The notes beneath the pieces were generated by a model. That model was given only the letters and a program-made list of their open reading frames with translations. It was not told where the DNA came from and searched no databases. DNA of 64,000 bases, taken from positions 1 to 64,000 of the forward strand of contig BTUM01000009.1 of the NCBI GenBank assembly GCA_045863235.1, given 5' to 3'. A program made the position numbers and the translations under genes. This DNA is from Candidatus Xenobia bacterium. GTDB taxonomy: Bacteria > Vulcanimicrobiota > Xenobia > Xenobiales > QWHO01. The stretch's first letter is position 1, and every line of letters begins with the position of its first letter. Shown piece by piece: positions 5,642 through 58,375 of this stretch.

Positions 5642-7162
5642 TCATTGCAGCCACAGCTCCTTGAGAGTGGCCGCGGCCCGGTTGGGCACCTCACGCACCA
5701 GCTCCTCCACGCGCCGGGTCTGGCGAATGCTGGTCTCGGGGAAAACCTGCGTCTGACCCAGCTCGTTGATGCCGCTCGGACCTTGTCGGCTCTCCATCCC
5801 GAGCTGCAGGCGAGGACGCGCGCCGCCCACGGCGCTGGCGGCCAGGGCCACCAGCCCGGCCAGTAGGAAACCAGCCGCTAGCGAGGCCAGCGAGAGCTGC
5901 GAGGTGGGCGCAGCCGCCACTGAGGGCGGCTCGGATCCGGACGCGACCACCGCCGGCGTAAGGGGCGCGGTGATGGTCTGCACGGTCAGAAAGTCGCCCC
6001 GGGTCTCGTCCAGACCGATGGCGCCTTTGACCAGCTCGCGCACTTGCGCCGCCTGGGCCTCGCGGTCCAAAGCTACGGCGCAGCTCAGGCGGGCGATACG
6101 CGGCAAGCGATCCACCTTCACGAAGTAGTTGAGGTCGTGCTCGCGCCTGGTGATCTCGCAGATCTTGCTGTACTTGCGGCCATCCCGGCCAGTAGTGAGC
6201 TGGGTGGCTTCCTCATCGTCCGAGGAAGCTCCATATTCCTCGCTCTCCTTGCGCGACTGCAGCACCACGTAGTGCTCGGGGCCGCCCACGTCCTGCTTGC
6301 GAATCTCGATCTCGGAGCTATCCAATTGGACCGTCACGCTGGTAAAGGCGTGACCCGGCCCCAGGCAACGGTCGAGCAGGCTCTGGGCGCGCTGATTGAG
6401 GCTCAGCTCCAGGCTGGCCTGCAGCGAGCCGAGCAACTCGTGCTCGGCATTGGCCGCGCTGGCCGTCAGCACCCGCCCGTTCTGGTCCACCACGGTCACG
6501 TTCTCGGGCTTGAGGTTGCTGACACTGGCAGCCACCACGGCCACCATGCCGTCCACCAGGGCGCGATTGAGCGTCTGGCCGAGTTGCATCTCCACCTTCA
6601 CGCAAGCGGTGGGGGGAGCGTGATCGCCCGGAAAGTAATCGCTGGGCGGCAGGGCCAGCTGCACCGAAGCGTCGGCCACGCCCGGGAACTGGCGCAGGTC
6701 GACCCGCAGACGCTCTTGCAGCCGGGCCAGACGATCTTCCTCAGATGGTTGCTCGAAGGGACCCGGAGGGATGTCCACCAGCTCGACCCGAGCCCGCGGC
6801 AAGCCGCACTGGCGCAGGTGCTGCAGGGCGCGCCGATGATCGGACGGCGCCACCAGAAGGTTGTCCTGCTCGGCGGTCAACTCGTGACTGATGCCCACCA
6901 GCGAAAGCTCGCGGGCCATGTCGCGCAGCTCGACCGGGGCGACTGCAAACGAGTAGAGCTCGCGGGGAGCGTTGGCAGCGCGGGCCTGACCCAGCAGCAA
7001 GACTCCGCTAACCAGCGCCAGCAAGCCGCCGACGAGAGCAAGTCGCCTGCGAGGGGTCAACGCCGTCCAGGCGCGGCGGGGCAGCTCGAGATACCAGGGA
7101 GATTGAGGGGGTTTGGGATTCGTCCGCCCGGTCTGCAGGCGGGAATGCACGCCAGTGGCCAT
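5642..7162 (-). CDS. fliF: FliF/YscJ-family M-ring-like protein (orphan)
   Basis: N-terminal TM, 'ADASVQLALP', 'VAASVSNLKPENVTVVDQNGRVL', 'QRAQSLLDRCLGPG', 'VRELVKGAIGLDETRGDFLTV', second TM, C-terminal 'PNRAAATLKELWL'; SD GGAGAGG before ATG 7162. Confidence 0.8.
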   Translation of the reverse strand: MATGVHSRLQTGRTNPKPPQSPWYLELPRRAWTALTPRRRLALVGGLLALVSGVLLLGQARAANAPRELYSFAVAPVELRDMARELSLVGISHELTAEQDNLLVAPSDHRRALQHLRQCGLPRARVELVDIPPGPFEQPSEEDRLARLQERLRVDLRQFPGVADASVQLALPPSDYFPGDHAPPTACVKVEMQLGQTLNRALVDGMVAVVAASVSNLKPENVTVVDQNGRVLTASAANAEHELLGSLQASLELSLNQRAQSLLDRCLGPGHAFTSVTVQLDSSEIEIRKQDVGGPEHYVVLQSRKESEEYGASSDDEEATQLTTGRDGRKYSKICEITRREHDLNYFVKVDRLPRIARLSCAVALDREAQAAQVRELVKGAIGLDETRGDFLTVQTITAPLTPAVVASGSEPPSVAAAPTSQLSLASLAAGFLLAGLVALAASAVGGARPRLQLGMESRQGPSGINELGQTQVFPETSIRQTRRVEELVREVPNRAAATLKELWLQ

Positions 7163-7460
7163 GGGTCCGATCACCTCTCCAGAACGTAATGACGCCGGGG
7201 CTTTCTCTGTGTGCAGCCTCGGAAAAGGGGACGGACCGGTCCGTTGACCATCATACCCGCCCCAGATGAACAAAAAGTTACCGAAGCGCTAAGAGTCTGT
7301 GAACTTGTTTCCGGGATATGAACAGTCGTGACCGAACTGCCCGGCCAGCTGGTCATTGTGCGACTTGTCGGCGCGATTTGTTGCCAGATCGTGAACGGGG
7401 CGGAGGATTTACCTTCCGGCAACCCTTTCCCGGCAACAACCGCGCTAGAATCACTCCGGA

Positions 7461-31007: not shown

Positions 31008-31042
31008 GGTCCGGTCGCAAACCTTCCATGGGAAAACAGGGA

Positions 31043-31290
31043 CAGGATGATGCCCATGGGGGGCAGGATGATGCAAAACAGATTGTGTAGAGCATCAGCC
31101 TGCTACACAATCTGCTGAGCGCAAGATGATGCAAAAGCCCTCTTCGAGGACTTTTGCATCACTCTGCTAGGAGCGCAGCCGGAAACCCCCTTGACACGGT
31201 TTTCCGGCTGCGCGACGCCCAACATGTTGTGCTAGAAGTTCGGCCGCCCACAATATCTTGTGGTGGCGGAGGTTCCCTCCGACACCACAG
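31043..31290. repeat. Nested MITE/REP-like hairpin cluster, copy 2
   Basis: 31119-31170 is the reverse complement of 4587-4638 (2 mismatches). Also CAGGATGATGCAAAA (31064-31078), CAGATTGTGTAG...CTACACAATCTG (31079-31114), and ATCTTGTGGTGGCGGAG...CGACACCACA shared with 4648-4682. Confidence 0.8.
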
Positions 31291-31309
31291 GGGGTTTGCG
31301 GCTGGACCT

Positions 31310-33142
31310 CTAGCCCCGACTGGTGTTGCGCCGCTGCACCTGGGCCGTCAGGCCGGTCGCGAGGGCACCACTGGTGTCGCTCTGAATGTCGGCCAGCATG
31401 TCGCGGCCATACATCCGCTGGTAGGCGGCCGCGATGGCGTCGATCTGGGGCTTGGAGCGAGTGGCCAGGATGTCGATCAGGACCTGCTCGTCGGTGCCCG
31501 TCTGGTTGTAAGCGGCATCGTAGATTCGCTGGGCGTCCTGGGTGGCGGCCAGCGGGTCGACCTGGCCACTCTCGTCGCGCCCACCTTGAGCCAACTTGAC
31601 CGCCAGGGTGCCGGCCCAGCCCGAGGTGCTGTCCTGCATGGCTTGCTCGAGAGTCTTCCCGAAGCGGCGCTGGTAGGCGGCGCTGATCTCGGCTATCTCG
31701 GCATTGCTGCGGTTGGAGAGCACCTCGAAGATGGCCGAGTAGTCGTTGCTGAAGGTGCCCAGGGAAGAGTTGATGCGCACCGCATCCTGGTCGCAAGCAA
31801 CCCGGTCCACCGCGGGCTGAGTGGGCTGCGTCGGTTGAGTGGGTTGCGTCGGCTGGGTGGGTTGCGTGGGCTGGGTAGGCTGCGTCGGCTGGGTGGGCTG
31901 CGTCGGCTGAGTGGGCTGGTCGCGGGGGCCCACCGCATCGGCGGGGTTCTGCGCAATGGCGGCGTCCAGGTCGACCATCGCGATCAGACCGTCCCGGTTT
32001 CCTCCGTGAGCCGCCGTGTCGACAGCGTCGAGCATGGCCGGGTTCTGGAGCAGGAACTCGATCGCTTTTTTCAGATCGGGCGGGCAGGCCGGATTGCCGA
32101 GCATCGCCTCCAGGTCATTCTTGCCGATCAAGCCGTCCTTGCCGCCCCGGCCGGCAGCCGTGTCCAGGAAGTCGAAGTAACGCTTGAGGATGACAGAGGC
32201 TCGACCGAGCGTCATCTGGCCCTCGGGGTCAGGAGTGGCATCCAGACCCGAGTACTTCTGAACCGCCGAGGTCAGGTCGTTACGACCGATCTTGCCGTCA
32301 CAGTCGCCCTGGCCAGCGGCCGTCTCCAGCGCGTTGAACATCGCTGGATTGTCGAGCAGATACTTGCAGGCCTCCTTGAGCTCTTCGGAAGCGTTAGGCG
32401 CTCGCCCGGAGACGATAGCTTCCAGATCAGGCTTGCCGATGATGCCGTCGCGCGAGCCAATTCCAGCGGCGGTATCCATCAGGTCGAAGTTGGCCTGCAG
32501 CAAGGAGGCAGCCCGCGCCACGGTCATCGGCTGGCGCTGGGTGGGCGGCTGGGGAGGCTGGGGCGGGGCTGGGGGCTGGGGAGGCTGAGGGGGGGGCGGG
32601 CATCCGCCTCCACCGTGCTGAGGAGGCTGCTGTTGGCGCTGCAGCTGCTGGAGCAGCCACATCAGTTGCTGCATCTGCTGCTGCTGTTGCTGCTGCTGCA
32701 TCATCATCATCATCATGAATCCGAACTGATTCTGACTCTGCTGCATCTGCATCATCATCATCATCAACATCGGGTCCATCCCGAAGCCGCCGCCCGGGAA
32801 CCCCATCTGGCCCATCGGGAAGCCCATCTGCATCCCGCCCGGGAATCCGAACAGGCTGGCCATCATATTGGGTCCAGGAGGGCCCTGCCAGGAGTACTCG
32901 GCGCCCGGAATGATCCCCGGCATCTGCGGGAAGGGGCAGCAGTAGCGCACGGCCTGAATGTCACTGGTGCACTGACCGTAGTAGGCGCGGTGGGCGTGAA
33001 CCTGCTCGGCCGACATCCCCTGAACCGGGACCAGGCCCGACTCCAGCGCCTGATGAACCGCGGCCATCCGGAGAGCCTGCGCCTCGCGCATCTGGGGACT
33101 GATAACTACGCGCTGGGGTCCGAGTCCGGTGATGTCGCTCAC
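31310..33142 (-). CDS. Protein with Met/Gln-rich harpin-like region, two HrpF/NolX-like repeats, (PTQ)11 linker and two annexin repeats
   Basis: PPDLKKAIEFLLQNPAML and DGxIGxxDL repeats; GTDEQVLIDILATRSKPQIDAIAAAYQRMYGRDMLADIQSDTSG fits the annexin consensus; SD AAAGGAG before GTG. Confidence 0.8.
   Translation of the reverse strand: MSDITGLGPQRVVISPQMREAQALRMAAVHQALESGLVPVQGMSAEQVHAHRAYYGQCTSDIQAVRYCCPFPQMPGIIPGAEYSWQGPPGPNMMASLFGFPGGMQMGFPMGQMGFPGGGFGMDPMLMMMMMQMQQSQNQFGFMMMMMMQQQQQQQQMQQLMWLLQQLQRQQQPPQHGGGGCPPPPQPPQPPAPPQPPQPPTQRQPMTVARAASLLQANFDLMDTAAGIGSRDGIIGKPDLEAIVSGRAPNASEELKEACKYLLDNPAMFNALETAAGQGDCDGKIGRNDLTSAVQKYSGLDATPDPEGQMTLGRASVILKRYFDFLDTAAGRGGKDGLIGKNDLEAMLGNPACPPDLKKAIEFLLQNPAMLDAVDTAAHGGNRDGLIAMVDLDAAIAQNPADAVGPRDQPTQPTQPTQPTQPTQPTQPTQPTQPTQPTQPTQPAVDRVACDQDAVRINSSLGTFSNDYSAIFEVLSNRSNAEIAEISAAYQRRFGKTLEQAMQDSTSGWAGTLAVKLAQGGRDESGQVDPLAATQDAQRIYDAAYNQTGTDEQVLIDILATRSKPQIDAIAAAYQRMYGRDMLADIQSDTSGALATGLTAQVQRRNTSRG
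31817..31915 (-). repeat. 11 x 9-bp coding tandem repeat (Pro-Thr-Gln)
   Basis: Eleven units counted, with synonymous third-position variation. Confidence 0.95.
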
Positions 33143-33182
33143 AGCTGAAGTCTCCTTTGAACCACGATTTTCTTCTGGACCT

Positions 33183-33211
33183 ATTATGCCCGACCGCTCC
33201 TTAGAAGTAAA
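33183..33211 (-). promoter_or_regulatory. Putative sigma70-type promoter of the annexin-repeat gene
   Basis: TTTACT-N17-CATAAT at the edge of an AT-rich intergenic stretch (about 33180-33320). Confidence 0.5.
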
Positions 33212-34648: not shown

Positions 34649-34992
34649 ACGAGGAAGCGCTGGCATTCTACCGCCAGCTCGAAAACGAGATCCAGACCGC
34701 CCTGCAGGATTTGACCGTGGTCCCGCCGCGCAAGTCCAGGCCGAGCGCCGTGCTGCGCCAGAGGCTCGAGGAGCGGCTCCAAAACCAGCGCGAGATCCTG
34801 CAGCGACTCGAGGCCGGCCAGATTCAATCCGAGCAGGCGCTGCAAATGATCGTGGAAGAGCAGGCTCGAGAAGCGACTCAACCCGGAGTCTACGGAGACT
34901 ACCTCAGCCGCCTCTCCGGACACCTCAAGAAGCTCTCCGGCAAGGTTCCAGGAACGGAACCGAAAGCCGCCGAAGGGCCCGCCGATGACTGA
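34645..34992 (+). CDS. Hypothetical helical protein
   Basis: TTGA overlap with the upstream ORF and 8-nt overlap with the downstream ORF. Confidence 0.6.
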   Translation: MNEEALAFYRQLENEIQTALQDLTVVPPRKSRPSAVLRQRLEERLQNQREILQRLEAGQIQSEQALQMIVEEQAREATQPGVYGDYLSRLSGHLKKLSGKVPGTEPKAAEGPADD

Positions 34993-35356
34993 GGTGGCTT
35001 CCGATCTTCTCACGTTTCTGCGCAATCTGGCCGACCATCTGGCTCTGGGGACTCCCCTGCCGATGGAGGAGATCCGCAACTCTCTCAACCTGGTCAAGAA
35101 CACCCTCGAGCAACTCTATGCCCAGTATGAAGCCCCCGCACCAGCCGGAGCCGAGGTCATCCGCGAGTTCATGCTGGAAGCGCTGCAGCTCTTCTACGAC
35201 GCGGTGGAGGGCATCGAGGCCTACGTCGAGACCGGGGAGCGCGACCGACTGGCCGAGTCGGTTCTCAAAGCCGAAGAGGCCAACGATATCCTCAGCTCGA
35301 TCGAGTATGTGATCGAGCAGAACAAGCAGTGGTTGAGCCAGTTCTCGGCCGGTTAA
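34985..35356 (+). CDS. Hypothetical acidic helical protein
   Basis: Coding-like codon usage; third gene of a coupled trio. Confidence 0.7.
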   Translation: MTEVASDLLTFLRNLADHLALGTPLPMEEIRNSLNLVKNTLEQLYAQYEAPAPAGAEVIREFMLEALQLFYDAVEGIEAYVETGERDRLAESVLKAEEANDILSSIEYVIEQNKQWLSQFSAG

Positions 35357-35472
35357 TGCGCGCGTGCTCTGGTCTTGCACATTGACACAATCTGACGAAC
35401 GCGCCGGAACTTCGTTCCAGTGCGCTGTAAAGTGCAAGACCAAGGGCCTTGCACTCTAGCCGGCTCCCCTGA

Positions 35473-36423
35473 ATGGCCCGCGACTATCTGAGCCAGGACG
35501 AGCTGCTCGAGCAGGCGCGCGAGCTGGGCCTCGATCTGACAGAGCGCACTCTGAAGTTCTATACCGCTCGGGGCCTGGTGCCCCGCCCGGAGAAGAAGCC
35601 GTTCCCGGCGGCCGATGGACGGGTGGCCTACTTCCATCGCGACGTCTTGCGTCGCTTGCGCCGCATCGAGCAGCTGAAGGCCCAGGGCTTCAAGCTCGAG
35701 CAGATCCGAAAACTGCTCGAGCAAAAGGGCGGAGAGAGCCTGCGCTCCCTCGGCCCGGCCGAAGAAGACTGGCGCCGCCAGGTCGCCTTCCGCTACCTTC
35801 ACCAGCAGGCGGGGGAGGAGGGCCGCCGAGCTCGGGTCGAGTTCCTGGCCAGCGTGCTCGGCACCGACCAGGAGGAGACCCTGCAGCGGGCGGCACGCCG
35901 CTATATGACCCGCTTGTTGACCCCGCTCATCGGGGAAACCGAAGCCACCCGATATGTCGAGGAGTACTTCCTCGGACTCCCCCCTCGCGAGCTCAATCGC
36001 CGAATGGAGCTCTTTCGGCACTGGAGAGACGAAGAGAAGAAGAAGGACCGGCAGGCCTCTCCTCTGGAGCTGCTCAGGCGCATGACCTCCGACTTTCTGA
36101 TGGGACTGGTGCAGGCCCCCGCCTTCGCGGGCGAGCTGGCCAGAGTGCGCGAGAGGCTCTCGGTCCGGCGCCAGGCCGTGGCTGCCCTGACCGACGCTCC
36201 CTGGCACGAGCCCATGCTGTTGAGCATGGCCCTGGAGTCCCTCGAGCATGCCGATCAGGGCCTGAAAGCCCTGGAGCAGGCGAGCCTGGAGAAAGATTCA
36301 AAGAGCGTGGGGGCAGGATTGGAGACTTTTCAAAGAGCCACCGACCAGCTGAGCCTCATCCTGACGCTGGCTCACGACCACGCGACCCTGCTAGAGAGAG
36401 GTCAGGGGCTATACCTGCCATGA
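35473..36423 (+). CDS. MerR-family HTH regulator
   Basis: LTERTLKFYTARGLVPRP...LRRLRRIEQLKAQGFKLEQIRKLL. Confidence 0.8.
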   Translation: MARDYLSQDELLEQARELGLDLTERTLKFYTARGLVPRPEKKPFPAADGRVAYFHRDVLRRLRRIEQLKAQGFKLEQIRKLLEQKGGESLRSLGPAEEDWRRQVAFRYLHQQAGEEGRRARVEFLASVLGTDQEETLQRAARRYMTRLLTPLIGETEATRYVEEYFLGLPPRELNRRMELFRHWRDEEKKKDRQASPLELLRRMTSDFLMGLVQAPAFAGELARVRERLSVRRQAVAALTDAPWHEPMLLSMALESLEHADQGLKALEQASLEKDSKSVGAGLETFQRATDQLSLILTLAHDHATLLERGQGLYLP

Positions 36424-53716: not shown

Positions 53717-54310
53717 CTACGGTTGGTTCTGAATGTACTTTAATCCGTGCTCAAAGCTATGGATCAGCTTGCAACCAAGCGCCTGTAACTGCGTCTCCAC
53801 GTTTGGAACCCCGAAGTCCTTGCTGTTCCGGTTGATGTGACAGCTCTGTGCAACCTTATTGTTTTGCAGATCTGTCAGGATACTGGCCAGCACAATGGCG
53901 TCGCCCGGGGAGAGGTAACTCTCGTGGATCCTGGCGTCCTGCAGAGTTCCCAATTCCAGCGGTAAGATGCGCGCCGCTTTGAGCAGCCGATCCCTACTTT
54001 GATCAAACTGAGTTTCCGCGTCCTGGATACTCCTGGTTAGCAAGTCGACAGAATGGTCGAGTGCCCGAAGACCCTCCGAGTATGAATCATTCCTGGCGAG
54101 TTCGGACCGCTGGCGCCTCAGATCCAGTTGTAGGTCTTGCCGCTTGATCTTTAGCCGAACCAAGGTGTTGAAGGGCTCGACCAGAGAAAAAGCTGGAATG
54201 GCCAGTTCTATCGATCGACCCGGGAGTGCCAGAATGTCTTGGCAGGCCTGAGACTGTTCCTGCCCGAGCACAAGTTCCAGCACAAAATTCGTCTCGCAGT
54301 AAACTCTCAC
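53717..54310 (-). CDS. PIN-domain protein (DUF4935-like)
   Basis: VYCETNFVLE, FSLVEP, LSPGDAIVLAS, NRNSKDF; GTGA overlap with the upstream gene. Confidence 0.8.
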   Translation of the reverse strand: MRVYCETNFVLELVLGQEQSQACQDILALPGRSIELAIPAFSLVEPFNTLVRLKIKRQDLQLDLRRQRSELARNDSYSEGLRALDHSVDLLTRSIQDAETQFDQSRDRLLKAARILPLELGTLQDARIHESYLSPGDAIVLASILTDLQNNKVAQSCHINRNSKDFGVPNVETQLQALGCKLIHSFEHGLKYIQNQP

Positions 54311-54753
54311 CGAGATTGGAGAACGCTTCCGCCATGAATGGCCGAAGGAAGTCCCGACTCATGCAATTCGCCTTGTTCCGTGGGCGAGTCGACTAAGTCC
54401 TGAAGCCATTGGCCCACGATGAGCTCATAGGCAAGGGGGTGCACTTCCGAGGGCTTAATTTGCGCGCGCTCGAAGTAGGGAGCAAGAATTGGACTAGCAT
54501 TCACCACAAAGTCCGGCTCGGTCGAACGACTCTCTGGCCTCCAGATGAAAAACTGTTCGGGAGTTGCGAGTAAGAAGTAAGAGCCCTTTACGGCCCACCC
54601 AGACTTCAGCAAATTGTCTCGAAAGCGGCTGGCCCAGGCCGAAGAGGCTCCCTTCAAGCTCTTCGCTTCCACAATCAGAGCCTGGTTTCCCAAGGCATCC
54701 AGGAGGAAAAAATCAAACTTATCGTCTCTGTCGGATCGCATCTTACTTTGCAT
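54307..54753 (-). CDS. Hypothetical protein with PD-(D/E)XK-like motif
   Basis: FDFFLLDALGNQALIVEAK; YFLLATPEQFFIW. Confidence 0.7.
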   Translation of the reverse strand: MQSKMRSDRDDKFDFFLLDALGNQALIVEAKSLKGASSAWASRFRDNLLKSGWAVKGSYFLLATPEQFFIWRPESRSTEPDFVVNASPILAPYFERAQIKPSEVHPLAYELIVGQWLQDLVDSPTEQGELHESGLPSAIHGGSVLQSR

Positions 54754-54969
54754 TCTACACCCGGACGCTCGTAGAGGGAAGGATTCGGGTGCTTGGCAGC
54801 AATGCTCGGTTTGGCCACAATGTTCCGTTCAGCGCAGTGCATCCCGGCACGCCGACGCGGACGAACGTCGCTCCCACGCAGAGAACCTACGCGGGAACCG
54901 CAGAATTCGGCTCAGTTCTGGTTCCGGGCACTGAGAGGAGGTCACGTTGATCACCGTTTGATCACCTAA

Positions 54970-55344
54970 CCTACTGATTGGGTAACGTATGATACGACCA
55001 CCAAATTCGAGCCTGACATGTTCGTCGCGCGGGTGGAGGGGGACTCTATGGAGCCACTCATCCCCAATGGCGCCTACTGCCTCTTCCGTTATATTCGAGA
55101 CATGCCTCGGGAAGGCAGGCCCGCTCTCGTCTGGCACGACGGGCTCAGCGATCCTCACACAGGCGGAAAGTATACCCTCAAGTATTTCACGGTTGAACCC
55201 CCAGTTGCGTGGCGCAAGCCTGGTCGGGTCGTGTTGAAGCCTGCAAACAAGAATTACGAGCCGATTATTCTTCCATTGGAGGGAGAAGGAGTATTCCGTG
55301 TAATTGCAGAGTTTCTGGAAGTCCTGAAGGGCGCAGGCACCTAA
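54970..55344 (+). pseudogene. 5'-truncated S24 (LexA-like) peptidase domain
   Basis: WV...PDMFVARVEGDSMEPLIPNGAYCLFR...GGKYTLK...LKPANKNYEPI; the frame begins right after TAA 54967 and has no HTH. Confidence 0.7.
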
Positions 55345-55383
55345 TTAGGCGCACTGGTGACTTAACCATATCAATCCGCGACA

Positions 55384-57672
55384 TCATTCTTGGAACTGCT
55401 CTGCGAGCGCCCAAAAGGCATCAATCCTCACGTCGCCCACGTCCCCCGTCTGGGCCTGAAGGAATCTCTCCTTGTCAACCTGGAACCGCACGAAGTTCTT
55501 GGCTTTCCCGCTGGTTTGTCGATGGACGTCCCGCAATACACCCGAGTCGATGCCAGCCTTAACAACTTCTTCGGCTAGGTCGCCAAAATCTGATTCGAGA
55601 TCTTCGACTGCTACATCAGAGGTTTTATTTGACTGCCGGACGAGCCTTGTAACGCACTTGATGAGCTTTGGCTGTACCTGCCGAACAGTTTCCCGTGCTG
55701 CAACTATGTCCTCAGTAAAATCTGTGGTCGCTCCGCGCGCCTGAATAGCCTCTAGTATCTGTACTGGGTTGAACAGTGTTTCCGTGTTCTGCTCACTTTC
55801 TCCACCTCGCGAATTGTCCAGCACTTCCAGTCGCCTAAATTCACAGTCCAGGAACCGTGATGAAATAACTGTAGATGAATCGACTTTAAAGCCATCGAAG
55901 AGGCACCTGATAAACTCGCATCCAATGAACTGCGTTCCACCAAGGTCTACGTTGACAAACTTGCAGCCGTGAAATGTCACCCTATCATACTTGTTCTTCA
56001 TTAGGCACTCATCAGCGAAGTTCAGGTCATGCAAGGAGATACCGTCCTCGCGCGAGTCATTTAGAAGGCCCGCGCATACTGCAGACGCGTTCGTGGACGC
56101 CGTGTAATCGTGATGGCTTTTGCCGATGGTTGATAAGACCTTAGTTACATTTCTTAGGCTGCCTCCTTCGCGCCGAAAAAACCAAACAGTCCAGTCAGTT
56201 AACTCTGGACTCAACTCGCGTTCGGATAGTAGAATCGAGAGAGAGTCGGTATCTTCGGACATCATTATTACGGCGAGCCGAGCGCCTAAGAAATACGCAA
56301 AAAAACTCTCATGCAGGAATCCAAAGGTAGCTGTAGCCCCCTCCTTTGGGACAAGGGCAGCGTGCGTAGGCACCTTCTCAATAATCTGGGTCTTAACTGC
56401 TGCTTCGAGCTGGAGGTGCATCAATCCGAGTTCTGCGGCTATTCGGAGTTCGTCGGCTGCAAGCCGAAATGCTCCGGATCGCCACATTTCCTCGGCAACT
56501 GCACCTAGCATTGCGATGTGCCCCGCGGTATCAAGTAAGGGCTTTCGCGTCTGGGTCTCTATCCATTTTTCCCATTCCTCTCGTTCGAGCAAAATGCGGA
56601 AAACGTAGTCGCTGCGCTCGAGGTGACTACCGCCAACGTCTATGTTCTTGAATCGTTCCTTCTCAACTACCCAGAGTTTGGCTAGACGTGTGAGGAAGAT
56701 CGGGTGGAAAATCAGTTGCTGGTCATTCTCGAAGGTGTTCAGGAGTTCACGCAGGTCCCGCTCGGCGTCCTCGGACCCCAGCGACTTAAATACCTCGATA
56801 GCCTGGTTGACCTTCCATCCCAAGAGTTGAATGCCGACGGTCGAATACGCGCCACGTTTGGGTTGGAGATGTGTCCTGATACTTGCCGAAACTTGGTAGA
56901 GGTCGAAGAAGCCTTCTCGAGCCGACAAAATCACGGACCCTGCAGTATCCATTTGGTCAACCAGTTCGGTTATTTTGATGAATGCGTCCCGACTGCCCAC
57001 CCGTGCCACCAACTCGTCGAATCCATCGAGCGCCAGGACTATCCAGCCCCATTTCATGCAGGCCACAACCTCCCGTTGCGTCAGAGGAAAGTCGTAGGTG
57101 TTGTTCAATGAGCCTGCTACAGCATCATCAATATTTCCCACATAGCGACCCAACAGGTCGACAGGAATCAAGATTGGAGTTGGATGCTCTTGGGCGCGAT
57201 ACTCATTGGCACACTGAATAGCCAGCCACTCCAGGAGGGCGGTCTTGCCTTGTCCAGCCGGCGCCATTAGTTGGATAAGTTGAGTATTAGCTACTGGAGG
57301 TGCCGCGATAATGCTACGAAGCCTGTTAAGAACACTATCTTCTTCAGTGCCACTTCCTGTTGCATATGCGCGAAAACGGGCATGGCCATCGATAAATTTC
57401 GCCGGGCGCTTCTCCCAGTTTCGCTGAAGAACGCGCGATATCTGTTGCGCCAACCTCGGCAAGCCGAGCACCTCGGACTGGACGTATTGCGTCACAGGAA
57501 CGACTTTCTCACCATCCACCACTCCAAAGCCGATCCCCGCGATCTGTGTCAACTCAAAGAGAGTCTCGCTTCCGTGGCGGAAAAGGCTCACGACGGAGCC
57601 CTCTCGATGGTAGTTTGCCGGGTCGGAGATCAGTTCTTGAAATCTCAGGTCTATATCTTCAATGCGAAGCAC
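55384..57672 (-). CDS. NACHT/STAND-type NTPase with pentapeptide repeats
   Basis: Walker A APAGQGKT, Walker B LALDGFDEL, VILSAR, HPIF, winged-helix FGFLHESFFAYF; pentapeptide FHGCKFVNVDLGGTQFIGCEFIRCLF; SD AGGAGG. Confidence 0.85.
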   Translation of the reverse strand: MLRIEDIDLRFQELISDPANYHREGSVVSLFRHGSETLFELTQIAGIGFGVVDGEKVVPVTQYVQSEVLGLPRLAQQISRVLQRNWEKRPAKFIDGHARFRAYATGSGTEEDSVLNRLRSIIAAPPVANTQLIQLMAPAGQGKTALLEWLAIQCANEYRAQEHPTPILIPVDLLGRYVGNIDDAVAGSLNNTYDFPLTQREVVACMKWGWIVLALDGFDELVARVGSRDAFIKITELVDQMDTAGSVILSAREGFFDLYQVSASIRTHLQPKRGAYSTVGIQLLGWKVNQAIEVFKSLGSEDAERDLRELLNTFENDQQLIFHPIFLTRLAKLWVVEKERFKNIDVGGSHLERSDYVFRILLEREEWEKWIETQTRKPLLDTAGHIAMLGAVAEEMWRSGAFRLAADELRIAAELGLMHLQLEAAVKTQIIEKVPTHAALVPKEGATATFGFLHESFFAYFLGARLAVIMMSEDTDSLSILLSERELSPELTDWTVWFFRREGGSLRNVTKVLSTIGKSHHDYTASTNASAVCAGLLNDSREDGISLHDLNFADECLMKNKYDRVTFHGCKFVNVDLGGTQFIGCEFIRCLFDGFKVDSSTVISSRFLDCEFRRLEVLDNSRGGESEQNTETLFNPVQILEAIQARGATTDFTEDIVAARETVRQVQPKLIKCVTRLVRQSNKTSDVAVEDLESDFGDLAEEVVKAGIDSGVLRDVHRQTSGKAKNFVRFQVDKERFLQAQTGDVGDVRIDAFWALAEQFQE

Positions 57673-58375
57673 ACTGGCCTCCTATCGAGGTTATTAGGAC
57701 CCCACGATTCTCAAGTGAAGTGTCGCAGTAATACGTTTTGGTGTGGGACCGAATAACAGACAAATTTGCGCCGTTGTGGATACTGGCGGCCAGCAATGCG
57801 GGTGAAAAGTCTACGTCATCGGAAACTAGGCAGATACACGAATCGGAAGAGGATGAGGCTAACGAAAGGAGGTCAGTTGCGATGTGGACGTCAACCTGCT
57901 TCTGCTCGTTTCTTTCAAAGTAATCGATATATCGATGTGCGCAGCTTGCTTCTGTGCAAGCGCGACTGTTTCCCATCCATCGCTGAACGTCCTTTAACTG
58001 ACAGCGCGCATTCTGGCAGTCGAGTTTACTAGAGGCACGCGGTTTGGAGCGCCTGATGGAGACGGTATGAGTAATGTGAGGGTCGGCGTGCGAGGCAAGG
58101 ATTAGACGGTCGGCAAACTCAAAGTGAACCCGGACCAGGAGACCGTAAGCTTTCAGCAACGCGGGGCACTGTTGTTGATAATAATTGGCCGCCGCATAGC
58201 GGGCCTCCGTGGCGAACTGGTCTCGAAACCAGCCACCATAAGCGCGGAAAACCACGTTAGCTATTCGGCCGCTTCGCGTCAGGAGGGTTTCGCGGCAGCT
58301 GTGCACCCACGATGTGATTACTTCGGCCGGCGGGACGTCCGAGAAATTGTCGTGGTCGACAAGAATATAGTTCAC
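57659..58375 (-). CDS. NYN-domain (LabA/DUF88 PIN-like) nuclease with Cys-rich insertion
   Basis: ILVDHDN, RAYGGW, EQKQVDVHIATD, LVSDDVDFSPAL; CQNARC...CTEASC insert; 14-nt overlap with the NTPase gene. Confidence 0.85.
   Translation of the reverse strand: MNYILVDHDNFSDVPPAEVITSWVHSCRETLLTRSGRIANVVFRAYGGWFRDQFATEARYAAANYYQQQCPALLKAYGLLVRVHFEFADRLILASHADPHITHTVSIRRSKPRASSKLDCQNARCQLKDVQRWMGNSRACTEASCAHRYIDYFERNEQKQVDVHIATDLLSLASSSSDSCICLVSDDVDFSPALLAASIHNGANLSVIRSHTKTYYCDTSLENRGVLITSIGGQCASH

Follow-up and report, generated by a model that had tools for sequence, protein, structure and literature searches.

What does a bacterium gain from a protein that joins repeats known from translocators of plant-associated Proteobacteria to a pair of annexin repeats, and on which side of the membrane does such a protein act? 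The question is raised by a gene on the minus strand of positions 1 to 64,000 of contig BTUM01000009.1 (the window, contig C9 of genome G000), from a Candidatus Xenobia bacterium, an uncultured inhabitant of wastewater or soil (assembly GCA_045863235.1; 8.36 Mb in 166 contigs, 97.6% complete). Candidatus Xenobia belongs to the Vulcanimicrobiota, a phylum of Bacillati. An initial annotation, made from the sequence alone, described the product as a translocator or harpin-like protein without a Sec signal, fused to a captured half of a eukaryotic annexin. All the elements on which it relied are present, where it had placed them, in the translation of the open reading frame (ORF) 31310-33142. We conclude that the product is most likely a Ca2+-dependent membrane-docking protein made of EF-hand-like modules and an annexin pair, its binding properties being predicted from a structural model for the former and from sequence for the latter. 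Its 610 residues, read from a GTG start according to the ORF list and the translation, are arranged as follows.

31310..33142, minus strand: whole gene, 610 codons plus stop (stop at 31310-31312); ORF list and translation
32939..33142, minus strand: residues 1-68, polar N-terminus and conserved helical hairpin; 15-sequence alignment, AlphaFold predicted local distance difference test (pLDDT) about 70-80
32777..32938, minus strand: residues 69-122, Gly/Pro/Met/Phe-rich, predicted disordered; pLDDT below 50 over most of it
32633..32776, minus strand: residues 123-170, Met/Gln-rich long helix; predicted helix 124-170, pLDDT up to 88
32531..32632, minus strand: residues 171-204, Pro/Gln-rich linker; translation
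32243..32530, minus strand: residues 205-300, first EF-hand-pair-like module, with loops DTAAGIGSRDGIIGKPDL and ETAAGQGDCDGKIGRNDL; Pfam NolX/HrpK1, pLDDT 93.5, fold searches
31928..32242, minus strand: residues 301-405, second EF-hand-pair-like module, with loops DTAAGRGGKDGLIGKNDL and DTAAHGGNRDGLIAMVDL and helix PPDLKKAIEFLLQNPAML; Pfam, BLASTP and model
31796..31927, minus strand: residues 406-449, AVGPRDQ-(PTQ)11 linker; translation
31613..31795, minus strand: residues 450-510, annexin repeat A; Pfam, genome search, envelope of the repeat hidden Markov model (HMM), loop comparison
31547..31612, minus strand: residues 511-532, 22-residue inter-repeat linker GGRDESGQVDPLAATQDAQRIY; gap lengths, di-repeat HMM test
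31346..31546, minus strand: residues 533-599, annexin repeat B; Pfam (best stretch 535-599), HMM of repeat 3 (R3)

The middle repeats had been said to recall HrpF and NolX, and this likeness is borne out. Pfam NolX (PF05819) matches with 40.8 bits (E 2.2e-10, cut-off 26.1) at profile positions 19-77 of 436, and T3SS_HrpK1 (PF16937) with 39.7 bits (E 5.5e-10, cut-off 30.9) at positions 16-59 of 251; the best stretches lie in the second module, at residues 341-400 and 355-398. The repeat region also aligns with a genuine HrpF-family protein from a Xanthomonas-relative genome (G022, 959-978 residues), both by BLASTP (E 4e-9, 27% identity, HrpF residues 159-309) and by hhalign (probability 97.5%, HrpF residues 150-548 of 959). 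The NolX profile is matched three times by this HrpF (1-109, 1-88, 1-435), which fits the number of repeats published for HrpF, described as carrying two or three imperfect repeats of about 110 residues where NolX carries one (PMC5483457). When the EF region was searched against plasmids with tblastn, neither NolX nor PopF was retrieved and the sole match was one Acaryochloris protein. Hence, the link to translocators is one at profile level plus one BLASTP match.

An AlphaFold model had been proposed as a check, and residues 200-410 are confidently folded (35-sequence alignment, pLDDT 93.5, predicted template modelling score 0.88) into four helix-loop-(short strand)-helix units that form EF-hand-like pairs. 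EF-hand proteins fill 50 of the 50 Foldseek rows listed (best E 3.7e-3, probability up to 1.00), and the VIA-align list is likewise headed by EF-hand proteins, among them calcineurin B (Z 6.1 over 138 aligned residues) and polcalcin (Z 5.5). As these Z values are moderate, we use the term EF-hand-like. Compared by sequence to solved structures, the region gave nothing significant (best E 0.19). Loop positions that hardly vary among 35 relatives are the Asp that opens D-T-A-A-G, both residues of D-G and the Asp of D-L, and the equivalent loops of some relatives pass Pfam EF-hand_6 (27.0, 34.7 and 31.0 bits, cut-off 25). The four EF-hand-like units, in two pairs, are homologous to the N-terminal repeat of about 110 residues of HrpF/NolX. 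The initial annotation would have given way to generic EF-hands devoid of such similarity: an EF-hand-like fold is indeed predicted, but the similarity to HrpF/NolX is there as well. If the model is right, the motif that suggested a translocator marks a Ca2+-type module that translocators also contain, not the translocator itself.

The C-terminal part is a clear annexin pair. Pfam Annexin (PF00191) recognizes two repeats (116.8 bits, E 4.3e-34; 78.3 and 47.8 bits individually), and the four-repeat core of classical annexins is replaced by two repeats only, corresponding to R2-R3. Residues 441-610 match solved structures with E values from 1.2e-44 to 6e-60, the best stretch running contiguously over positions ~90-250 of four-repeat annexins (e.g., 6tu2_A 100-248, 96.7 bits), and identity to solved and metagenomic annexins is 38-44%. 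Repeat B has a near-canonical Ca2+ loop (NQTGTDEQ and SDTSG), and in most relatives neither repeat departs from the canonical elements (G-x-G-T-[DN]-E and [DE]-T-S-G). The type II Ca2+ site of annexins consists of a G-x-G-T loop and an acidic residue some 38 residues downstream. Both module types of the protein are thus, as had been suggested, related to calcium, one as judged from the model and the other from its sequence motifs.

To which repeats of the tetrad the pair corresponds was assessed with HMMs built from the 45 classical tetrads among the homologue matches. Held-out controls were correct in 60 of 60 cases for single repeats and in 45 of 45 for di-repeats, which include the linker. 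The di-repeat HMMs assign the window protein to R2-R3 (143.3 bits, against 101.9 for R1-R2 and 99.9 for R3-R4), as they do 10 of the 11 family members, and the junction QGGRDESGQVDPLAATQDAQRIYDA is therefore of the repeat 2-3 type, as first annotated; this call depends largely on the linker of 21-22 residues. A clean succession of repeat 2 and repeat 3 was not recovered by the single-repeat HMMs. Repeat A is tied between R1 (44.9 bits) and R2 (44.4 bits), and repeat B, which is R3-like in the window protein (84.9 bits vs 69.1, 66.6 and 46.7), is R3-like in 4 of 11 family members and R2-like in the other 7.

Was this pair captured from a eukaryote? In a quick IQ-TREE analysis of 116 R2-R3-type units, 12 fusion units and 10 units from proteins with two pairs form one group (SH-aLRT, the approximate likelihood ratio test, 97), to which none of the 45 tetrad and 49 octad units belongs. 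The tree was rooted at its midpoint and no direction of transfer can be read from it. Since the pair belongs to a clade of bacterial pair-type annexins (Eremiobacterota and a Deltaproteobacteria metagenome-assembled genome, MAG), a recent capture from a eukaryote is not demonstrated, and the idea of a captured half-annexin is not supported. The annexin part does group with bacterial proteins, as a sceptic of the initial annotation might have expected, yet these resemble eukaryotic annexins far more than do the bacterial annexins of the 2014 survey, whose similarity to eukaryotic ones is described as remote (Kodavali et al. 2014, PMC3894181). Those annexins are likewise bacterial and sporadically spread, including in myxobacteria-like lineages, and are fused to other, unrelated domains (DUF4157, M90, lipase, colicin D). 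On sequence grounds, we regard the pair as an established bacterial module whose closeness to eukaryotic annexins is unusual. Candidatus Eremiobacterota is the source of the closest annexin fragment, P0070; a homologue search restricted to residues 445-610 gave 3 matches, with no useful names. As a side observation, five proteins (P0036, P0176, P0045, P0046 and P0065) carry two R2-R3-type pairs in tandem, the gaps between their repeats measuring 21, 29-104 and 21 residues. Of these proteins, P0036 is a named annexin encoded on an 11.5-Mb contig of a Deltaproteobacteria MAG.

The remaining part of the initial annotation, that the protein is a translocator, did not survive the comparison with HrpF. 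What the two share is the N-terminal repeat of about 100 residues; the NolX body and the hydrophobic C-terminus are absent, and no hhalign alignment was obtained to the C-terminal half of HrpF with its Gly/Ala-rich hydrophobic stretch. Type III export genes, which the annotation had proposed to look for, are limited to one full FHIPEP (FlhA) gene and one full FlhB gene, adjacent to each other in a flagellar operon that also holds FlgE/F/G-, FliM-, FliN-, FliO-, FliP- and FliQ-type genes; there is no second cluster, and no hrp/hrc gene was found near this gene or near 8 distant homologues. A relative of the same genus, G135, has two full FHIPEP genes, both in flagellar clusters (30 of 42 candidate ORFs scanned), and the second of these clusters is absent from G000. 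With the translocon body absent and the only type III gate flagellar, the protein is not an HrpF/NolX translocator, and its membership of that family is largely refuted.

A genuine type III translocator, or a harpin-like helper that inserts into or opens a target membrane, therefore strikes us as very improbable. It would account for the above-threshold NolX and HrpK1 matches, for the polar N-termini rich in S, T, N and Q across the superfamily and for the FHIPEP gate in all the module-bearing genomes tested; the Met-rich helix is, besides, transmembrane-like in 4 of 15 relatives (maximal 19-residue hydropathy 1.6-2.5). Yet the two profiles are matched over no more than the segments given above, hhalign stays within the repeat region of HrpF, and in the window protein the helix reaches 0.84 and is not transmembrane-like. 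Harpins are Gly-rich, cysteine-free and type III-secreted. This protein has 8 cysteines, which argues against both the translocator reading and the harpin-like label, its Gly-rich stretch is limited to residues ~69-122, and its genome has no injectisome. The Met/Gln segment is predicted as a single long helix without a specific match: by fold, the N-terminal model retrieved nothing beyond generic single helices and coiled coils (Z up to 5.6), and an ESM Atlas search with residues 1-175 gave no usable match. A complex prediction with three copies of the helix (residues 118-176) scored 0.02 against a mark of 0.42, which is evidence neither way.

Several FlhA-derived genes were noted along the way. 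In G000, two genes at C106:14867-16855 (L043:8867-10855) and C107:13662-15911 (L044:7662-9911) encode cytoplasmic fusions of the FlhA C-terminal domain (FHIPEP ~310-655 only) and FliG_N, and several ORFs, including some on C80, C3 and C1, encode the FlhA C-terminal domain alone; relatives in the phylum have up to 8 FHIPEP matches per genome. The window itself has a lone FliF-like gene at 5642-7273 on the minus strand (YscJ_FliF 90.5 bits, YscJ_FliF_C 54.5 bits), which has none of the other flagellar genes next to it and shares only 30% identity with the FliF encoded in the C27 flagellar operon.

The architecture is shared by a family. The N-terminus, the Met-rich helix, the EF module and the annexin pair occur together in at least 10 further proteins, down to ~30% identity, where relatives have one EF module and an annexin pair; the number of EF modules per relative ranges from 1 to 8. 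In a scan of 72 representatives, out of 150 listed among 2592 matches, 9 have exactly two annexin repeats, of which 4 have NolX or HrpK1 according to Pfam, and alignment reveals the EF module in most of the other two-repeat relatives too. Residues 1-68, with hairpin helices 16-35 and 45-68, an invariant R25 and almost invariant L33 and Y54 (15 sequences), are in this alignment the family signature, which is common to a paralogue without annexin. The family or its modules were found in 22 of 251 sampled genomes of the phylum, all of large-genome lineages, and in none of the 161 of the largest family (f15); these tallies include six genomes flagged as unpublished (G311, G328, G293, G326, G258 and G313). 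The family is thus confined, in this sample, to large-genome lineages of Eremiobacterota/Vulcanimicrobiota.

Strong purifying selection acts on the gene. Orthologues with 95-98% protein identity exist in other MAGs, and against two of them (L030 and L031) the ratio of nonsynonymous to synonymous substitution rates (dN/dS) is 0.02-0.03 overall and 0.00-0.06 in each domain. The annexin half is the most strongly constrained, with 36 synonymous and 0 nonsynonymous differences to L030; the PTQ copy number differs among orthologues. The guanine-cytosine (GC) content at the three codon positions (0.67/0.47/0.83) is like that of other credible genes in the window, which has 65% GC. The elements listed at the outset exceed chance because the Annexin, NolX and T3SS_HrpK1 models score above their cut-offs, and because of this codon-position GC and dN/dS.

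The variation within the family would also suit an adhesin or a structural protein of the surface or matrix, in which the EF-like modules would be Ca2+-stabilised spacers or protein-docking units and the degenerate annexin pair would bind protein or glycan instead of lipid. Dockerins are an analogue for such Ca2+-stabilised modules. The varying number of modules, the long Pro-rich and PTQ linkers, a repeat A without a Ca2+ site and paralogues that pair the EF module with quite different C-termini all agree with this possibility. We nevertheless consider it improbable: the annexin half is the domain under most constraint, and the canonical Ca2+ elements in both repeats of relatives point to classical Ca2+ and lipid binding in the family.

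The paralogues themselves are varied. A 689-residue protein of G000 (C4:13083-15152, minus strand) has the same N-terminal region and four module pairs, but no annexin; its gene lies directly downstream of OEP-HlyD-ABC-ABC-ABC2 genes (ABC, ATP-binding cassette), with which it is co-oriented and which extend upstream to ~20800. This arrangement was not seen beside the more distant homologue L033. A 1089-residue paralogue (C47:58403-61672, plus strand) has tandem ERQRAGLPLELDQVT-type repeats, three EF-like pairs and a long C-terminal part with Gly/Ala-rich hydrophobic stretches at its end, a layout reminiscent of HrpF in which Pfam matches the repeat only. An ORF that runs off its contig end (C143:7344-10969, plus strand; at least 1207 residues) has 3-5 annexin repeats, PKAEPEPVAP repeats, a LysM-like stretch identified by eye and Gly/Ala-rich hydrophobic stretches resembling those of the C47 protein, and C149 carries a further ORF with a single annexin repeat. 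In a Cystobacterineae MAG, a protein with eCIS_core (the former DUF4157) and a calpain-type peptidase (L036:3858-5663) is encoded directly upstream of an EF-module protein; DUF4157 fused to annexins is also reported in Haliangium in the 2014 survey (PMC3894181).

Where does the protein act? Export, taken by itself, is in our view modestly favoured, and a cytoplasmic location rather unlikely. The reading we prefer, tentatively and at a little less than an even chance, is that the protein is exported by a non-Sec route and docks on membranes in a Ca2+-dependent manner. The protein would leave the cytoplasm without Sec, the conserved polar N-terminal region being the export and/or assembly part, and the candidate routes are the flagellar gate, which is the sole type III gate of the genome, or an ABC/HlyD/OEP system. 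Outside the cell, the modelled EF-like modules would bind Ca2+ and the annexin pair, judging from its loops, could dock on anionic phospholipid surfaces via Ca2+ bridges, mainly through repeat B. These surfaces might be the membrane of a foreign cell or the producer's own outer surface. The protein would form no translocon pore, because the HrpF/NolX body is absent.

Several observations are in line with export. The characterised carriers of the module, HrpF, NolX and PopF, are published as type III-secreted. In a 2151-residue protein encoded on an Acaryochloris plasmid, the EF module is combined with three PG_binding_1 domains, an M15 peptidase/VanY domain, LysM and PPC, without a signal peptide. 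The absence of a Sec signal noted in the initial annotation is confirmed, since the first ~35 residues have no hydrophobic run (maximal 12-residue Kyte-Doolittle mean 0.78). None of 39 diverse proteins with at least two such loops has a signal-peptide-like N-terminus, their starts being polar and rich in S, T, N, Q and K, as expected for a non-Sec route. The OEP-HlyD-ABC operon directly ahead of the C4 paralogue and the FHIPEP gate of distant module-bearing genomes point the same way, and the presence of secretins and OEP in G000 shows that the organism has an outer membrane.

Other observations weigh against this reading. The absence of signal peptides suits a cytoplasmic location equally well, and neither an export signal nor an export system can be linked to this gene: the OEP-HlyD-ABC operon is of the ABC-2 type, usual for efflux, and adjoins the paralogue, not the present gene. 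A profile search of the 97.6% complete genome found no injectisome, no type VI secretion sheath and no WXG100 family; T4-gp19 tube and eCIS_core proteins were also not found in G000, which are weak absences as they were not found in control genomes either. A full-length FHIPEP gate is present in the 5 distant module-bearing genomes tested (5/5), but FHIPEP occurs in 236 of the 251 genomes of the phylum and this co-occurrence therefore says little. No neighbour is shared across 8 distant homologue loci (77 of 89 candidate ORFs scanned, the 12 omitted being those of the orthologous locus L031). As for Ca2+, both site elements of repeat A are degenerate (SSLGTFSN and QDSTSG), a Q replaces the first G of the Ca2+ loop of repeat B, the EF-like loops have ~18 residues where the canonical length is 12, the fold Z-scores do not exceed 6.1, and no Pfam EF-hand model matches the protein at E up to 1.

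Many of these points would suit a cytoplasmic annexin-like membrane scaffold or repair factor, which would sense Ca2+ through its EF-like modules, dock on the inner face of the membrane via the annexin pair and self-associate through its low-complexity Gly/Met/Gln N-terminal region. Eukaryotic annexins A7 and A11 offer a likeness, with self-associating low-complexity N-termini and EF-hand partners, and a low-complexity N-terminus on an annexin core recalls cytosolic eukaryotic annexins such as P0011. With a well-defined start codon and neither a Sec nor a Tat-like N-terminus, with no signal peptide in the 39 module-bearing proteins, with no dedicated non-flagellar secretion system found in the genome and with a gene that forms a unit of its own near SepF, YggS and a GGDEF response regulator, all of them housekeeping or signalling genes, this explanation is the main rival. 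We still find it fairly unlikely, given that the characterised carriers are all secreted and that the module is joined to peptidoglycan-binding and cell-wall hydrolase domains in Acaryochloris. Moreover, Pro/Thr-rich linkers are commoner in extracellular bacterial proteins and annexin-type sites usually need Ca2+ far above the level of the bacterial cytoplasm. We retain the exported, membrane-docking protein as our preferred, if tentative, interpretation.

Placed among known systems, the protein resembles three more of them in part, besides the bacterial annexins compared above. Like HrpF, NolX (NopX), PopF and HrpK1 of plant-associated Proteobacteria, it lacks a Sec signal and has the ~100-residue repeat, whose helix reads P-x-[DE]-L-K-x-A-x-x-x-L-x-x-[DN]-P and whose loop reads G-x-x-D-G-x-I-x-x-x-D-L. 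It differs from HrpF/NolX in that the remaining ~350 NolX positions and the Gly/Ala-rich hydrophobic C-terminus are missing, neither an injectisome nor an hrp cluster is present in the genome, an EF-like loop occurs in each half of every repeat, and an annexin pair and another N-terminal domain are present. With eukaryotic annexins of the A7/A11 type it shares a long low-complexity N-terminus and two repeats with a 22-residue linker that match R2-R3; R2 and R3 make up a single structural module in the solved annexin tetrad. In contrast to these annexins, it has only two repeats, which fall in a separate clade from the R2-R3 units of tetrads and octads, a degenerate Ca2+ site in repeat A and EF-hand-like modules in the same chain. 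EF-hand sensors such as calcineurin B, NCS-1 and polcalcin have the same paired helix-loop-helix as predicted here, with the short beta bridge and the D-G-x-I-x-x-x-D loop core, whereas this protein has longer loops, an invariant upstream D-T-A-A-G, moderate fold scores and no Pfam EF-hand match.

In the literature that we could search, which excludes subscription journals, an architecture of EF-hand-like modules and an annexin pair is not described, nothing combines Eremiobacterota with annexins, and HrpF, NolX and HrpK1 are not linked to EF-hands or calcium binding, including in the accessible portion of PMC12942743. NolX, HrpF and EF-hand are nowhere mentioned in the 2014 annexin survey (PMC3894181). 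The N-terminal repeat of HrpF/NolX/PopF, to which neither fold nor function had been assigned, is now confidently predicted as an EF-hand-like pair and proves to be widespread as a module among bacteria that have no injectisome. This makes Ca2+ sensing a testable idea for a long-studied and structurally unknown translocator family, while the clade of two-repeat bacterial annexins bears on the origin of the annexin tetrad. The protein is also a strongly conserved product, present in RNA libraries, of an uncultured phylum.

A bolder idea is that the family is a free-living relative of HrpF/NolX exported through the flagellar gate. The EF-like repeat and the polar export region would then predate injectisome translocators and serve Ca2+ sensing at the target membrane, and the annexin pair would be the bacterial sister of eukaryotic R2-R3. 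We see this as a long shot. If true, the real job of the repeat would be Ca2+ sensing in plant pathogens too, and the annexin pair would again inform on how the tetrad arose.

The GTG start is backed by two features upstream of it:

33152..33157, minus strand: Shine-Dalgarno sequence AAGGAG, 9 nucleotides 5' of the GTG start; read from the sequence
33183..33211, minus strand: promoter-like site TTTACT-17-CATAAT in an AT-rich upstream region; consensus scan

The consensus scan found 3 promoter-like sites where 0.4 were expected, which is no proof of function. Contigs of RNA libraries from three studies (wastewater, sludge and bioreactor, habitat names being based on four runs) match the gene with 0-1 differences. 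They cover the neighbours as well and allow no reading of strand, ends or expression level, and are consistent with transcription of the gene, short of proof. The neighbours in the window are a YggS-like gene, SepF, a convergent lipoprotein-like ORF and an upstream response regulator-GGDEF gene. These are housekeeping or signalling genes, and the gene looks like a separate transcription unit.

Some features of the surroundings deserve mention. A dispersed repeat of ~140 nucleotides lies in the intergenic region 3' of the gene (31166-31307) and again at 35357-35472; it has dozens of copies in the genome at 91-97% identity (156 blastn segments for the first stretch, 66 for the second). This repeat accounts for the depth spikes at 31010-31310 and 35224-35524, where neither a tRNA nor an Rfam family was recognised, and for the numerous loose ends of contigs from the RNA libraries. 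An ORF of 123 residues followed by a MerR_1-domain protein of ~320 residues is found near the family gene both in the window (34985-36423) and in a distant Vulcanimicrobiota relative (L037:3284-4672), in orientations that differ between the two loci. At 54001-58000 of the window, the GC content drops to 0.52-0.54, from ~0.65 elsewhere, and no ORF there has the codon bias of the genome.

The near-identical or closest named records of the gene are assigned to Candidatus Eremiobacterota/Eremiobacteraeota or Vulcanimicrobiota. Public labels are at odds with content at loci L029, L030, L033, L038 and L035. Contigs 97-98% identical to this Eremiobacterota-type gene bear the automatic title 'uncultured Burkholderiales', and a relative labelled as a 'Selenomonadaceae' MAG has FHIPEP coordinates identical to those of G133, a genome of the phylum of the window.

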